Virus record (IMG/VR): IMGVR_UViG_3300036828_000568
Coordinates: 1 to 64,000 of that record
Length of the DNA: 64,000 nucleotides
Reading direction: 5' to 3' (one strand)
Origin: a virus
In this document: positions 15,228 through 23,122 of the stretch, one piece after another
Layout: each line of letters opens with the position of its first letter
How positions within the stretch are numbered: position 1 is the stretch's first letter
Notes under the pieces: model-generated
What the model was told of the DNA's origin: nothing
Databases searched by the model: none
Seen by the model: only the letters and a program-made list of their open reading frames with translations
Made by a program: the position numbers and the translations under genes

Positions 15228-15515
15228 CTAGCAGTCATAAACCTCTACCTCCGGCGGGCGTTCTTCTAGCATCTTTTTGTACTCGGGCATGTGCTGGATA
15301 GCTATGGCATTCAAGCCAGACCCTACCACTATCTGCATTCCACAGCTACGGCACTCGTACAGGTCGGCTTGCCAGAGTTTATAGGATTCCCATTCAGAAG
15401 CAAATAGTTTCCCTGGGATTGCTCTTGGCTTCTTAGGCTTCATCTCCTGTACGCGAATGCCGCATCGCGCCGGTTTGAAGAATGTGCCACATGAAACGCA
15501 GATAGGTTTCAGCAC
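15228..15515 (-). CDS. Zn-ribbon protein
   Basis: CVSC...CRSC; AGGAGG RBS. Confidence 0.65.
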   Translation of the reverse strand: MLKPICVSCGTFFKPARCGIRVQEMKPKKPRAIPGKLFASEWESYKLWQADLYECRSCGMQIVVGSGLNAIAIQHMPEYKKMLEERPPEVEVYDC

Positions 15516-16312
15516 GCCCTCCTCCTTCTGATATAGCGCCAGAACGCGAACGCGCCAAGCAAACCCGGTAATCCGGTGCCGACTATCGGACCTGGGACCG
15601 GGACTTGCTGATTTACCGGCGTAGTCATAATCAGCCCACCTACATCGCCCTGTGCAAACGGAGGGTGCGTTCCACCAGTGAATGCGAACACCTCTGTAAT
15701 CTTGAACTGTTGGCCTGGAAGCATGGCACTCAGTGTTATATCATCGATCCGCAGGCCATTGCTGAACTGGTCCTGGCCCGCGAATGATGATGTACCTCCC
15801 ACAAATGGTCCGCAGAATGGATTGGGTGTATTGCAGACTAGGACCTGGGTAGTCACTGTGTAGCCAGGAGTGCCTACTGCCGGGGTTTCGATCGTGCCCC
15901 ATTTCGTAGGTAGCGTAATCATGGGGTTGCCCGTCAACGTGCCGGTCCACGAGGCGTAGAGGTACGCTGTCCCACCTTGGGGCGGAGCAAACCCATCGTT
16001 AAAGGTAAACTCGAATGTTGGGTTCGGACCTCCTAGACCGCCGCTGAACGTGTTGCCCCCTGGAGGGATAACTCCAGCAAAAATTTGGTCGAACCCGAAA
16101 CCAGTGGGACCAGTTGGTAAAATCGGATTGCCGATAATCTGCACGTTTGGGGCTATGCCTCCAGGCGTCACAGTCCCGGTGTTGGTGCCGAGGATTGCAA
16201 TACCAGTCATGCCAGCGCCAGGATCGAAGTAACCAACAGTCACAGTGTCAGCATTTGCTGCCAGAGGGCTGAGCAGCATGGTCGTAGCTAGTAACACAGA
16301 ACGCATTTTCAT
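15509..16312 (-). CDS. PEP-CTERM-like (VPGP variant) surface protein 1
   Basis: signal peptide ...LSPLAANA; C-terminal VPGPIVGTGLPGLLGAFAFWRYIRRRR; ATG 16312 downstream of promoter. Confidence 0.8.
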   Translation of the reverse strand: MKMRSVLLATTMLLSPLAANADTVTVGYFDPGAGMTGIAILGTNTGTVTPGGIAPNVQIIGNPILPTGPTGFGFDQIFAGVIPPGGNTFSGGLGGPNPTFEFTFNDGFAPPQGGTAYLYASWTGTLTGNPMITLPTKWGTIETPAVGTPGYTVTTQVLVCNTPNPFCGPFVGGTSSFAGQDQFSNGLRIDDITLSAMLPGQQFKITEVFAFTGGTHPPFAQGDVGGLIMTTPVNQQVPVPGPIVGTGLPGLLGAFAFWRYIRRRRAC

Positions 16313-16349
16313 CGTGGGGTTCCTTTTCCTTTGCCCCCATGCCTTTTGC

Positions 16350-16378
16350 ATTTTACTTTACGGAAGTTAGGGATGCAA
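16350..16378 (-). promoter_or_regulatory. sigma70-like promoter, GTAAAG class
   Basis: minus strand TTGCAT-ccctaacttccGTAAAG-TAAAAT. Confidence 0.7.
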
Positions 16379-17024: not shown

Positions 17025-17699
17025 TTACGCTACAGCTTCACGTCGATACCACCATGCGAAACGCTTCTGGCGGAAACGAGCAAAGCCGAGCAACAGAAGA
17101 CCGACTAGTCCCGGCAACCCTGCTCCAACGATTGGGCCAGGAACCGGAGCCGCAACATCAACGCGATAATGCTCGAAGTCGGTGATAGTGCCACCGGTAT
17201 CGCTTATCGTGAAGCTGTTGATGGTTTCGCCGTTGATGGCAGTCAACGTGAAGAAGTTTTGCCCCGGCCCGAGTGGGCCGAAGAGTGAGAGCAGGTCGAA
17301 GTTGACCGGCTTGGTTCCACCACCTGGCTCGTTCGCGGTCACGGCCACTGTCACGTCGCCGGTACCTGTGATTGAGAAGATGTCGGTGGCGGTGGGTAGC
17401 ACCGTTGTCTTGTCTGCGGCAAAGACCTGCACACTCATACTGCCAAAGTCGTTGATCTTGATATCATTGCCTGAAGCTGCTCCGGTGAAACCAGTGCAGG
17501 TAACTAGGCAAGTGAAATCAACGAACCCTGTATGCTGGCCGTTGAAGCTGCCGACGACAAGATTGCTACCGGCGACATGGCTGTCGAAGTTAACGAGATC
17601 ACCTGTACTACCACCTGTGTCAGTGATGATCACGTCCGCCTTTGCAGGCATAACGGCGAGTCCCAAAAGCATGGTCCCCGCCAACAGATACTTTTTCAT
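17025..17699 (-). CDS. PEP-CTERM-like (VPGP variant) surface protein 2
   Basis: signal peptide MKKYLLAGTMLLGLAVMPAKA; C-terminal PVPGPIVGAGLPGLVGLLLLGFARFRQKR; AAGGA RBS. Confidence 0.85.
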   Translation of the reverse strand: MKKYLLAGTMLLGLAVMPAKADVIITDTGGSTGDLVNFDSHVAGSNLVVGSFNGQHTGFVDFTCLVTCTGFTGAASGNDIKINDFGSMSVQVFAADKTTVLPTATDIFSITGTGDVTVAVTANEPGGGTKPVNFDLLSLFGPLGPGQNFFTLTAINGETINSFTISDTGGTITDFEHYRVDVAAPVPGPIVGAGLPGLVGLLLLGFARFRQKRFAWWYRREAVA

Positions 17700-17889
17700 G
17701 TGCTAATGTCCTTTCGGTTGTTGCACATTACTGTTGGGGAAAGGTGATACTCGGTTTTTGTTATTTCATACACGACCCTCCTTCTTGGTTGTGTTCGACA
17801 ACCTCCGAAAACCCGGTATCGTTGTACCGGGCTGTAAAGCATTATTGCAGCATGATTTGCCGAACACAAGGCGTATTTTTTGTACAGAA

Positions 17890-18861
17890 AACTCGCGCGT
17901 CGTGGTACTTTCTTGTAGTATGGTTCGCTCACTTGCTGTGGTACACTCTTAGGTCGCCTGGCTCGCTCACGTCACAATGGTACTCTCGCCACTTTTGGCT
18001 CACTCCCGTTCTATGGTACTCTCCATATAGTTGGTTCGCTCTTCACCTATGGTACACTTGCTTCCGTTGGCTCGCTCTCCTGGTATGGTACTCTCCAGGT
18101 GATTGGCTCGCTCTTCTTCTATGGTACATTCTGCATTCTTGGCTCACTCACGTTTTATGGTACTCTCCGTTGGGATGGCTCACTCGTACAGGATGGTACA
18201 CTCAGTCAGGATGGCTCGCTCACTTTGTTTGGTACTCTCTGTCAATATGGCTCGCTTCATTCGTATGGTACATTCGTGCGTCATGGCTCGCTTACACTTT
18301 ATGGTACTCTTCAGGCTGTTGGCTCACTCCGCGGGTTTGGTACTCTTTGGTCTTGTGGCTCGCTTCCGTTCAATGATACACTCGACCAGGATGGCTCGCT
18401 CACCTCATATGGTACTCTAACCAGTTATGGCTCGCTCTTCGACGATGGTACACTCCCAATACGTGGCTCGCTCTCATGATATGGTACTCTTCGAAGACAT
18501 GGCTCGCTCTTGTGGGCTGGTACACTCGGTCGGGGTGGCTCGCTTCCTATGGTACACTCTATGAACATGGCTCGCTCAAGTTTCCTGGTACTCTTCCCCG
18601 CGCAGGTTCGCTCACCATTTATGGTACTCTTTCCCATAGTGGCTCACTCTTCTCGTATGGTACACTCTGGCATGTTGGTTCGCTCGCAGTCTATGGTACT
18701 CTCTGCATGGGTGGCTCGCTTTCATCATATGGTACACTCAGGTGGGGTGGCTCGCTCTGTCTTATTGGTACACTCGACGCTTATGGCTCGCTCACGCACT
18801 ATGGTACTCTCGTGTCGATTTGGCTCGCTCTCTGACTCTGGTACACTCACGCTTACTGGCT
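17890..18861 (-). ncRNA. TIGR-type dual-repeat guide-RNA array (about 27 x 36-nt units)
   Basis: minus-strand unit AGCCA-N9-AG(T/A)GTACCA-N9-AGCG; 27 AGWGTACCA-type and 26 complete AGCGAGCCA-type repeats alternating at 18-nt spacing; variable spacers; abuts Nop-domain gene. Confidence 0.9.
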
Positions 18862-19682
18862 TACCAAGTTCCCCACTCGGGCGGTGGTTCGATCTTATCG
18901 ATGTGCCCGAGGTGGGTTATTGGGAAAGGTTGTGGAGCATCTTTCCCAAACTCTAGCTTGTACCACACCTGATGCAAGTGGGACAAGAATATCTTAGTAG
19001 CGTACCGACGACTACGAGCATCTATCTGTGCAGGAGGCAATTTACCTGTAAGAAGATGCTTGCGTGTTTCCGTAGGTTTCTTATAGCGTGGCAAGAGTTC
19101 CCTAGCAGTCTGTGCGTTGCCGCCGTTTTCGTTGCGCTTGATTTCATATTCCTTGCGCACCTCATAGATCTTGCCGTAATAGCATTTGTCGTTGTTGTGG
19201 AATTTCATAAAGCATTGACCGATATGCCAGCACAATGTCTTAAGACCAGCATTCCAAGGGCGCTTTTCACCCTCGCCCCATTTGTCTGTGGGATCCAACC
19301 CGGCAAAGCGCCAGATATGCCCGGTGGAGGGGCAGACTTTGATGTCGATATGGGCGATTAATCCGGCTGATATTACTGGCCCAATCCCAAAAATGTTCTT
19401 CATACGACGGCCAATTTCTTTGCTGTCGCTATACCGGTCAAGCGCACTACGGAGGTTGCGTTCCAGTACATCGCTCTGTACTGCCAACCAGTTCAGGATT
19501 TCGTGTGGTTCTACCACTTCTTCAGTGGTCATAGACCGGATTTGGTTATCCGACCGTTTGCGCATTTCCTGCATGATGTAATAGCTATCAACAAGGAAGC
19601 GTGCTTCCCTATCTGATAGTGTTACCGCCGCTGTCCGTAAATCACGGGACAGTCGTTCTACAGATTCTATGTCCATTACCAT
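18861..19682 (-). CDS. tasA: Tas protein (TasA-type): IS110/Nop RNA-binding domain without nuclease domain
   Basis: N-terminal coiled coil (LVDSYYIMQEMRKRSDNQ); IFGIGPVISAGLIAHI...IWRFAGLDP...WNAGLKTLCW...YYGKIYE.RK...ARSRRYATKIFL; no DEDD/RuvC or HNH domain; AAGGAG RBS; adjacent dual-repeat array. Confidence 0.85.
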   Translation of the reverse strand: MVMDIESVERLSRDLRTAAVTLSDREARFLVDSYYIMQEMRKRSDNQIRSMTTEEVVEPHEILNWLAVQSDVLERNLRSALDRYSDSKEIGRRMKNIFGIGPVISAGLIAHIDIKVCPSTGHIWRFAGLDPTDKWGEGEKRPWNAGLKTLCWHIGQCFMKFHNNDKCYYGKIYEVRKEYEIKRNENGGNAQTARELLPRYKKPTETRKHLLTGKLPPAQIDARSRRYATKIFLSHLHQVWYKLEFGKDAPQPFPITHLGHIDKIEPPPEWGTW

Positions 19683-19963
19683 TCTCCTTTCATTGGAACA
19701 TATACTCCATTACGCTCTACTAATTGAACCGGGTTCATACCCGGTCCGACACTACGTTCTGCGCACGCCCGCACGCGCGGGGGTCGTTTTACCCATAATT
19801 TCCGACCAATGAACGTGCCTAGCTGGATTGTTAACACGCATATCCAAAACAGGCCCACTATGATTTGAGCTGCTAATTGAATTAGTAGCCCGATCAATAT
19901 CAGGGTTTCGCGCGCTAGTAGAACTAGCAGCACTCCCAGTATAAAAAAGAACACCAAGGTCAT
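19676..19963 (-). CDS. small membrane protein overlapping tas start
   Basis: hydrophobic N-terminal ~50 aa; AGGTG RBS. Confidence 0.6.
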   Translation of the reverse strand: MTLVFFFILGVLLVLLARETLILIGLLIQLAAQIIVGLFWICVLTIQLGTFIGRKLWVKRPPRVRACAERSVGPGMNPVQLVERNGVYVPMKGEW

Positions 19964-20817: not shown

Positions 20818-21123
20818 TCAGGAGTCCCGTGCGTTTTCTTTTTCGACCATACCACCTCCTACAGCAAATCGAGGCAGGAACCGTTTTAAAGATCCATCGA
20901 GGATATCGAGGTGGTTATGAATTCCTAGAATATCATGCATGAAATTAAAGTCACTTGCTTCTAAAAGATGCTTTAGATGCAATGGTTTGATTTCGAAGTG
21001 AACAATCCTTAATTCTGATTCTATGTATGATGATTGAACATCACGACCATACTTCTTATACATGCGCGCGGCGCGCTCAGCAATTTGTTGTATGAGGCTG
21101 TTTTCTTCCCGGATGTTTGCCAT
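20818..21123 (-). CDS. conserved phage protein (DUF6874-like)
   Basis: PLxLxxLLxASDFNFMHDILGI...FLPRF; AAGGA RBS before ATG 21123. Confidence 0.6.
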   Translation of the reverse strand: MANIREENSLIQQIAERAARMYKKYGRDVQSSYIESELRIVHFEIKPLHLKHLLEASDFNFMHDILGIHNHLDILDGSLKRFLPRFAVGGGMVEKENARDS

Positions 21124-21400
21124 CGTTGGTTCCTTAATTATGTTGCGAGCCCTGGAGTACGGGGGGCGTATTTTCCAGGGCTCGCAGCCAAACGGAGTCA
21201 GAGATGTGGGTGCTGTTCCGTTTAACCATAAAAGTTTACAGCGTTGATAACCGGATGGCAATAATCTTTTGCGGTGGGGGCTTGTAAAATGATACAACAT
21301 GTGGTACTGTCTTTTCCCCAACGGACGCAGTGCCAGGAGCCACGTCTCGTTGGCTTAGACCTCTACCTACAATCAGGAGGTCTGTTCTTCCCCTTGCCAC

Positions 21401-21820: not shown

Positions 21821-23122
21821 ATGACAATACAACTTCCAATCCCACTACAAGGACAAAGAATTATTAGTCTGCCTCGCTTGCATCCTGGGCAGATAGAAGC
21901 TTTCCTAATGTCTGCTCGATTTAGAGCATTGCGTTGTGGGCGACGGTGGGGGAAGACTAATTTCTTAAAAGCTGTCGCCTGTGACTTCGCAGCGAAAGGT
22001 GCCCAAGTTGGATGGTTTGTCCCTAACTACCGCTATGCCTCGGAGGCGTATAGTGAAAACGAGGTTACGCTAGAACCCGCCGTTCGAAGTTCCTCACGCA
22101 ACTTGGGCACCATTCATACAACCTCTGGTGGACGAATTGAACTCTGGACTCTTGAGGATGAAAAGGCTGGTCGTTCCCGTCGTTACCATCTGGTGATTAT
22201 TGATGAAGCCGCTTTCACTAAGCCGAATGCTATCGCCATCTGGGAGAAAGCTATTAGGCCAACGCTGCTGGACTTCCGTGGCGCTGCCATCGTTGCATCA
22301 AACACTAATGGGATCAACGAGGATAATCTTTTCTGGCGCATCTGCAATTTGTCAGAGTACGGATTCAAAGAATATCACGCACCGTCACATAACAATCCGT
22401 TCCTCCCAGCCGATGAACTCGAGCGTCTTGAGCGCGACAACCACCCCCTCGTCTATGCCCAAGAATACTTAGCAGAATTTGTCGATTGGTCAGGTGAAGC
22501 ATTCTTTAGCCTGAACAATTTGTTAACCGAAGGCAAGCCAGAACCATTTCCTCAGCGGTGTCTTTATGTTTTTGCAACGATGGATACTGCTGTTAAGACT
22601 GGTAAAGAAAATGATGGTACGGGAGTTATCTATTGGGCATATGAAAGACTTGGTGAGGAGAAGTGGTTAAAGATTATTGATTATGAATATTTGCAGATTG
22701 AAGGTTCTTTGCTTGAAACTTGGCTTCCTGTAGTTTATCAGAACTTAGAAGAATATGCGAAAAAATGTGGTTCAAGGCTAGGACACCGAGGGTGCTTTAT
22801 CGAAGACAAGGCCAGTGGGTCGATTCTGCTACAGCAAGCACGACGCCGGATGCTAGTCGTCAGCGAAATGCCGCAAAAGCTCACGCAGCTTGGAAAAGCG
22901 GAGCGAGCGATAAACGTCAGCGGGTACGTGTTCCAAGGCAAAGTCAAACTTCTGGAAACGGCGTACGATAAAGTGCTTTCATATAAGCAAGTCACAAAAA
23001 ATCATCTACTTGGGCAAGTGCTAGGGTTCCGTGTAGGTGATGTTGAAGATCGAGCAGATGATCTGTTAGATGCCTTCACATACGGTATCGCAATTAGCAT
23101 GGGAAATTGGGAGGGATTCTAA
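21821..23122 (+). CDS. terL: terminase large subunit
   Basis: CGRRWGKT Walker A, IIDEAAF Walker B, QEYLAEF, nuclease MDTA...IEDK...DDLLDA. Confidence 0.95.
   Translation: MTIQLPIPLQGQRIISLPRLHPGQIEAFLMSARFRALRCGRRWGKTNFLKAVACDFAAKGAQVGWFVPNYRYASEAYSENEVTLEPAVRSSSRNLGTIHTTSGGRIELWTLEDEKAGRSRRYHLVIIDEAAFTKPNAIAIWEKAIRPTLLDFRGAAIVASNTNGINEDNLFWRICNLSEYGFKEYHAPSHNNPFLPADELERLERDNHPLVYAQEYLAEFVDWSGEAFFSLNNLLTEGKPEPFPQRCLYVFATMDTAVKTGKENDGTGVIYWAYERLGEEKWLKIIDYEYLQIEGSLLETWLPVVYQNLEEYAKKCGSRLGHRGCFIEDKASGSILLQQARRRMLVVSEMPQKLTQLGKAERAINVSGYVFQGKVKLLETAYDKVLSYKQVTKNHLLGQVLGFRVGDVEDRADDLLDAFTYGIAISMGNWEGF

Follow-up and report, generated by a model that had tools for sequence, protein, structure and literature searches.

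The array of short repeats at positions 17892 to 18861 is best explained overall as the guide array of a phage TIGR-TasA system, a combined reading that we place at a probability of roughly 70%. According to this reading, the purine that ends most spacers is a base of the repeat, and the preference of one spacer class for TA at its start, A at position 5, and G at position 7 is a property of the system. Look-alike spacers fall within chance, odd spacer lengths are inherited, and the array changes rarely, by recombination and without polarity. The locus itself, a guide-RNA array of a phage TIGR-TasA system, is of a known kind and ordinary for its kind. All positions refer to the window, the 64,000-nt stretch that was analyzed (positions 1 to 64,000 of IMG/VR virus record IMGVR_UViG_3300036828_000568). 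The source record is 75,158 bp long, 97% complete, and carries a single array.

The principal features of the locus are as follows.
17892..18861, minus strand: dual-repeat TIGR array of 27 units (parsed repeats; ends like those of related arrays).
18861..19682, minus strand: tas gene, 273 aa, TasA type with a Nop-like RNA-binding core (phmmer against PDB).
19676..19963, minus strand: hydrophobic ORF, 95 aa (ORF list; 7-nt overlap of its 3′ end with the tas start; no Pfam match).

When the minus strand is parsed, 54 short repeats with an 18-nt period are found in the region from 17892 to 18861, equivalent to 27 units of 36 nt, and the coordinates and anatomy given in the earlier note prove right. 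The sequences GAGCGAGCCA and GAGWGTACCA alternate strictly along the array and are separated by spacers, which are 8 nt long in 50 of 54 cases. The first repeat is a 5′-truncated version of GAGCGAGCCA (AGCCA, 18861–18857) that overlaps the tas stop codon, and the last element is a bare GAG (17894–17892). An AGCCA start and a GAG end are also found in related arrays. Because truncated edge repeats at both ends are a published rule for TIGR arrays (PMC12045711), we assign GAGCGAGCCA as the edge repeat and GAGWGTACCA as the loop repeat, and therefore the spacer that follows the edge repeat is called spacer A and the one that follows the loop repeat is called spacer B. Nearly all full repeats (51 of 53) end in CCA, the exceptions being one CCT and one TCA, and a RAG-type triplet starts every one of them, edge and loop alike. 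The published start motif of TIGR repeats is UG, and divergence common to edge and loop repeats has been described (PMC12045711). The RAG start common to both repeats would correspond, by analogy, to the box-D side of the published scheme.

The array is located directly downstream of tas on the same strand. A phmmer search against PDB matched the tas product to 9MTY, the TasR RNP of Faure et al. (PMC12045711), with E 2e-10 (query 37–191 and 223–270 aligned to chain 124–321), to TasH (21kl) with E 2e-9, and weakly to the IS621 bridge recombinase with E 3e-3. The TasR/TasH alignment includes the C-terminal H-GH-D-I-PP-W segment. In Pfam, the only match is a weak one to Transposase_20 (helix-hairpin-helix), and no DEDD_Tnp_IS110 or HNH domain was found at E ≤ 0.1. 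Given the TasR/TasH matches together with the absence of a nuclease domain of RuvC or HNH type, we conclude that the product is a nuclease-less TasA. The 95-aa hydrophobic ORF is possibly the first gene of the tas unit. Neither a reverse transcriptase nor Cas1 is encoded anywhere in the 75-kb record, which bears out for these two genes the earlier statement that no Cas1/2-like or reverse transcriptase gene is visible; a ParB-like partner gene is likewise absent from the 75-kb record. No convincing rho-independent terminator of the sort described for the TIGR family was found at the array, and a scan of the locus for promoters and terminators gave nothing helpful above shuffles.

The locus shares with dual-repeat TIGR-TasA systems (Faure et al., Science 2025, PMC12045711; e.g., FpTasA) two alternating repeats of ∼10 nt that end in CCA (box C) and have a common start motif, a 36-nt unit, truncated edge repeats at both array ends, and a phage-borne array that directly follows the gene of a solo Nop-type Tas protein and is not accompanied by adaptation genes. 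It differs from them in its number of units (27, compared with 5–15 as typically reported), in the start of its repeats (RAG instead of UG), and in its spacers, which measure 8 nt if the R is counted as repeat, instead of 9 nt. Its strong 5′-TA preference in spacer B is without mention in the TIGR papers compared. The best phage-database relative of the Tas core is SpTasH of Salicola phage CGphi29 (PDB 21kl and others; 34% identity over 80 aa, E 2e-9), which also uses 8-nt spacers and engages its target with spacer A before spacer B (10.64898/2026.08.11.744272). However, SpTasH has an N-terminal HNH nuclease and cuts DNA, whereas the tas product here has no nuclease domain.

Two further kinds of system resemble the locus less closely. 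CRISPR arrays are also tandem repeat-spacer arrays beside an effector gene that yield one guide RNA per unit, but the locus differs from them in its two repeat types, its two short spacers per guide, its lack of Cas1/Cas2, and the absence of both leader-end polarity in repeat decay and unit turnover between strains. A CRISPR-Cas assignment, which calls for one repeat of 25–36 nt, spacers of ∼30 nt, and Cas1/Cas2, was rejected because the repeats are 10 nt long and of two kinds, the spacers are 8 nt long, and the 75-kb record has no Cas1. Archaeal box C/D sRNAs and IS110 bridge RNAs are similar in being dual-guide RNAs bound by a Nop-type domain via box C/D-like motifs. These RNAs differ in that they are not arrayed, and their partners (fibrillarin/L7Ae or a DEDD recombinase domain) are absent here.

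The first of the spacer biases reported in the earlier note is that nearly every spacer ends in a purine. Under a 9+9 split of repeat and spacer this is correct: the 54 units have 42 G, 11 A, and a single T at the last “spacer” base. This base is the first of a 10-nt repeat, RAGNGNNCCA, and its level of constraint is like that of repeat positions and unlike that of spacer positions. Under a 10+8 split, which leaves spacers of 8 nt, the bias is gone, and this disappearance is the outcome that had been named beforehand as speaking against a spacer bias. Thus, because the base belongs to the repeat and the bias vanishes once it is counted there, the purine end of the spacers is a boundary effect.

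The second reported bias, a TA start in about 15 of 26 spacers following AGWGTACCA, was reproduced. We find TA at the start of 15 of the 27 B spacers and of 4 of the 27 A spacers that follow GAGCGAGCCA (Fisher p = 0.004), and the binomial p value for spacer B is 5e-12 when TA dinucleotides are taken to occur at a frequency of 0.06. Spacer B is also rich in A at position 5 (14/25) and in G at position 7 (15/25), whereas no column of spacer A departs from background. The TA bias survives any choice of repeat boundary, and in the position-wise comparison with a null model that had been proposed as a check it stays real and is restricted to spacer B. A dependence of TA on the loop variant (W = A or T) was rejected, as 9 of 14 A-type and 6 of 13 T-type loops are followed by it.

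A wider set of arrays was obtained by scanning IMG/VR for the repeat pair, which returned 95 stretches, 56 of which encode a Tas homologue at 33–60% identity. Parsing gave ∼720 unique spacers per class and 45 non-redundant arrays, including that of the window. All relatives are metagenome assemblies, in which repeat arrays may be mis-assembled. For the positional test we used 30 independent arrays with at least nine spacers per class, the window being excluded. Position 1 is W in 62–63% of both spacer classes, compared with a background of 51–53%. Two further preferences exist in spacer B only: A (43%) or, more broadly, R (72%) at position 2 (B versus A, paired p = 7e-4), and G (36%) at position 7 (p = 0.005). 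Because the spacers of the 30 arrays are unrelated, this common positional preference is not explainable by the descent of particular spacers.

In this setting the window's array is the strongest case. The share of TA reaches at most 33% in any other array, the positional information of the window's spacer B is the highest of 31 spacer sets (z 6.6), and its B–B similarity is the highest among the 45 arrays. No locus has more than one 8-mer in common with the window's spacers. We read the TA preference of spacer B as what would be a constraint of the TIGR system, present in an extreme form in this phage, and not as the trace of recent unit duplication. One origin suggested in the earlier note, a target-edge preference, stays a live reading in the form of a position-specific preference where spacer B begins at its 5′ edge.

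A different view of the same bias, and to our minds a very unlikely one, is that TA belongs loosely to the 3′ end of this lineage's loop repeat (GAGWGTACCA-TA), such that spacer B is effectively shorter and holds less information. The W-rich position that follows CCA after both repeats across the family would fit this view, as would the reported range of TIGR repeat lengths (8–12 nt; PMC12045711). However, TA is present in just 56% of units, while the repeat positions proper are 80–100% conserved in the array. Furthermore, units lacking TA show no other defect, and the G7 and A5 biases are not next to the repeat.

The look-alike spacers pointed out earlier do exist, although they do not exceed chance. 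Sixteen pairs are alike at six or more of eight positions, compared with 10.9 ± 3.3 in column-preserving shuffles (p = 0.086), and three are alike at seven or more, compared with 1.2 (p = 0.13). Over lags of 1 to 20, no spacer-similarity signal survives correction for 20 lags and there is no steady dependence on distance. The periods of 72 and 144 nt that TRF reports in the array are not mirrored in spacer similarity at lags of 4 and 8 spacers.

These data bear on the possibility that the array grew by tandem unit duplication and point mutation, wherein the TA...A.G consensus and the look-alikes are ancestral remains. The small excess of near-identical pairs is in its favor, as is a slightly higher resemblance among the TA-type B spacers at positions 3–8 (p = 0.077), which may reflect some common descent or a common target motif. 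However, each 36-nt copy takes along one spacer A and one spacer B and would mark both equally, yet spacer A is flat and A–A similarity is at background (2.06 of 8), while B–B similarity is 2.78 of 8. Since the consensus is confined to spacer B, it does not stem from recent unit duplication. The absence of lag structure, the bias at the same B positions in 30 arrays without common spacers, and the fact that no unit was gained between strains also speak against growth by duplication, which we regard as quite unlikely. The origin suggested in the earlier note, unit duplication plus mutation or recombination, consequently does not hold for this array, in which similar pairs and lags are within chance and only spacer B is biased, as it is in 30 unrelated arrays.

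In the wider family, such events are evident as duplicates, repeated blocks, unit gain and loss, and spacer replacement, and the true duplicates and duplicated blocks are the remaining points in favor of growth by duplication. Identical spacers within one array number 8 (A) and 15 (B), compared with 0.2 and 0.3 expected in shuffles, and within-array pairs alike at seven or more of eight positions number 17 (A) and 27 (B), compared with 3.9 and 6.2 expected. Multi-unit blocks are also repeated, for example spacers 13–16 and 51–54 of the family array L004. We estimate from the family counts that about 5% of spacers have an identical or near-identical relative in their array, and the origin of most spacers is therefore unexplained by duplication. 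An identical 8-nt spacer, which constitutes half a guide, recurs within arrays L080, L042, L083, and others of the family, seemingly without its neighboring spacer, as with TTGGAAAT, which is present three times in L080. This recurrence hints that crossing-over in the repeats reshuffles the A and B halves.

The DNA was found in two soil metagenomes (runs X1 and X2), and the runs listed as carrying it include no RNA run. Close relatives of Tas, sought in IMG/VR by peptide patterns, were not found, and the nearest homologue, from the IMG/VR stretches with the same repeats, is 60% identical. For this reason the spacers cannot be compared one by one with those of another assembled phage, and strain X2 offers the sole comparison of this type. 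A contig from X2, a second soil sample from another study, covers positions 17600–18995, including the whole array. Its array has the same 27 units and differs by three transitions, at 17999 (edge repeat), 18026 (spacer A), and 18701 (loop repeat), with no indel and no unit gained or lost. In the same strain, the 290 nt of downstream flank carry seven substitutions and one indel, and a second contig over tas (18966–19700) carries 11 substitutions. Thus, 3 differences in 972 positions of the array compare with 19 in 1129 positions of the flanks (∼1.7%; Fisher p = 0.002), and the spacer bases have 1 change in 432 compared with 7.3 expected (p = 0.006).

The low divergence of the array is compatible with purifying selection acting on its guides as well as with a recent tract of recombination. 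The quiet block, from about 17852 to 19234, also takes in the 3′ third of tas, where there are zero differences, and because of this extension a recombination tract could explain the low divergence without selection on spacers. Low-depth contigs carrying “joints” in the array were considered as variants of this array and rejected, because their different repeat variants and low likeness mark them as other TIGR arrays. In both soil metagenomes, low-depth contigs carry further TIGR arrays that belong to this repeat family, seen as loose ends with GGCTCGCTC / GGTGCTCTC units (window 17600–19700, runs X1 and X2), and several TIGR-bearing phages seem to co-occur in the two samples.

The comparison of related arrays that had been suggested as a check for polarity and turnover revealed no polarity of repeat decay in 42 family arrays (mean rho −0.004) and no unit turnover between the window and X2. 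In the window's array, repeat mismatches do not rise toward either end (Spearman rho 0.03). The earlier claim that the promoter-distal end is the most degenerate accordingly fails for the repeats, and what stands of it is that two of the four odd-length spacers fall in the last three units. Among the relatives, identical arrays are kept by the pairs L010/L063 and L021/L066, at 0.8% and 4.9% flank divergence, and one family pair at 6.2% flank divergence exhibits internal unit gain or loss and replaced spacers.

The relatives L082 and L086, from different metagenomes, have 7 differences in 7342 positions (99.9% identical), and 6 of the 7 are in one spacer B (L082:5945–5951), which reads AAGTAGAG in one and TGGACACG in the other. 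At seven of eight positions the new spacer is identical to TGGACAAG, another spacer B in that array, and the spacer A that precedes each of these two B spacers ends in CCG in both units. This replacement looks like short-tract conversion between units, although it may be an assembly artefact. Together, we infer from these sequence comparisons that TIGR arrays probably change rarely and by recombination between their short repeats; polarized, CRISPR-like acquisition does not fit the array.

We also searched for targets of the guides. In the 75-kb phage itself, searches for 16-bp sites in the arrangements B+rcA and rcA+B gave one match with two mismatches and 25 with three, the same as mis-paired controls, and none of these self-target matches is near a promoter motif, even with gaps of 0–2 bp. 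Likewise, the window's guides gave nothing at one or fewer mismatches in 877 kb of related phage loci. When 587 family guides were compared with the same 877 kb, two exact 16-mers were found in the arrangement rcA+B, whereas four control arrangements yielded none and the expected number is about 0.24. The two sites are matched by a guide of L044 in L003 (minus strand, offset 10811) and by a guide of L004 in L044 (plus strand, offset 5101). By derivation, the rcA+B arrangement implies 5′ overhangs, whereas the published geometry has 3′ overhangs. Chance is the probable source of these two cross-phage matches, which we treat as a lead only, the alternative being phage-against-phage targeting.

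These searches also address a narrow form of the target-edge preference, in which about half of the guides of this phage are directed at a single family of related sites, whose conserved half (the complement of TAnnAnGn) is read by spacer B and whose variable flank is read by spacer A. Several observations suit this idea, namely that the bias greatly exceeds that of every relative, that it reaches positions 5 and 7, and that TA-type spacers tend to have A5 and G7 in common. However, no such target was found in the phage itself or in the 877 kb of related phage DNA, and the direction of the bias is the family-wide one, which a phage-specific target motif does not predict. A shared target family is therefore an unlikely explanation. 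Because the target searches found no natural target, a preference of the guide and a motif common to the targets are indistinguishable.

A system-wide preference in spacer B, the reading that we favor, can be placed in the scheme of the published family. The array would presumably be transcribed together with tas on the minus strand, and the transcript would be cut inside the edge repeat to yield 36-nt tigRNAs, each predicted to consist of half an edge repeat, spacer A, the loop repeat, spacer B, and half an edge repeat. As in that family, a Tas dimer would hold a 16-bp site on which the two 8-nt spacers base-pair, one with each DNA strand, and spacer position 1 would pair at the outer edge of the target, as derived from the published 3′-overhang geometry. 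In the version that we prefer, A/T-rich pairs beside the CCA of the loop repeat might ease DNA opening for the second spacer, which engages more slowly; alternatively, TA could be a signature of the process that creates spacers. Change of the array would proceed as in its relatives, where blocks are duplicated, units are gained or lost, and single spacers undergo short-tract conversion.

For SpTasH, whose spacers are 8 nt long, spacer A is reported to engage the target first and spacer B late, with differing sensitivity near the unwinding junction (10.64898/2026.08.11.744272), and the compositional asymmetry of A and B parallels this recently reported order of engagement. A role for TA as a melting aid for spacer B at the target edge may be envisaged, and this idea is weakened by the fact that spacer A, the first to engage, has no position-2 bias.

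The expansion of TIGR arrays was called an “enigma” in the founding paper (PMC12045711), and our literature search found no later paper on how these arrays arise or how they keep or gain spacers. The locus and its approximately 45 non-redundant relatives provide the first comparative data on TIGR array change, a modest body of new data in which there is no decay polarity and unit content is unchanged at 1–5% flank divergence, and in which duplication, gain or loss, and replacement do occur. A broader proposal, which we hold tentatively and at somewhat below even odds, is that the guides in this repeat family are not neutral with respect to sequence. Spacer B would have a built-in preference for 5′-W-A (here TA) and G7 that spacer A lacks, reflecting either a hidden requirement within the target or a signature of spacer genesis. 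The same proposal holds that TIGR arrays are static and change only by repeat recombination (block duplication, unit loss, and single-spacer conversion), with no dedicated, polarized acquisition. If true, the 5′-W-A/G7 preference would stand out in a system described as PAM-free and symmetric, and should it prove functional, it would matter both for the design of guides in TIGR tools and for finding natural targets.

The irregular lengths described earlier were borne out, and under the 10+8 split the four spacers concerned are 4, 9, 9, and 10 nt long.
18546..18549, minus strand: unit 9 spacer B, 4 nt, TAGG (array parsing).
18812..18820, minus strand: unit 2 spacer A, 9 nt, AATCGACAC (array parsing).
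17969..17977, minus strand: unit 25 spacer B, 9 nt, TTGTGACGT (array parsing).
17949..17958, minus strand: unit 26 spacer A, 10 nt, GGCGACCTAA (array parsing).

These make up 4 of 54 spacers (7.4%), which is about the rate of the family, where spacers of other than 8 nt account for 7.6% of spacer A and 3.0% of spacer B, and where 9-nt spacers alone account for 5.6% of spacer A. Because the second strain has no insertion or deletion anywhere in the array, the odd-length units are inherited and not fresh errors. The 4-nt spacer B of unit 9 probably makes a crippled guide.

The odd lengths are also relevant to whether the repeats might encode a plus-strand hexapeptide-repeat protein (xGSLxx / YGTLxx), with TA located inside a Tyr codon. 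Plus-strand ORFs of 105–210 aa with such repeats do cross the array. However, a stop is possible at only about four free codons in every 36 nt, which makes open stretches the expected outcome, and the frame is broken several times by the odd-length spacers. The adjacency of Tas, the truncated-edge ends, and the related arrays with unrelated spacers all fit an RNA array. A protein-coding origin was rejected on the frame breaks, and we give it practically no credence.

Two additional observations concern the neighboring genes. Just downstream of the array, the minus-strand ORFs at 15509–16351 and 17025–17699 encode secreted-looking proteins with no Pfam match, both of which end in VPGPIVG(T/A)GLPGL followed by a hydrophobic/basic tail that resembles a PEP-CTERM sorting signal. 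On the other side, between the Tas unit and a large plus-strand ORF (21821–23122) that we took for a putative terminase large subunit, a 167-aa ORF (20818–21321, minus strand) gives a clear match to DUF6874 (E 6e-19).
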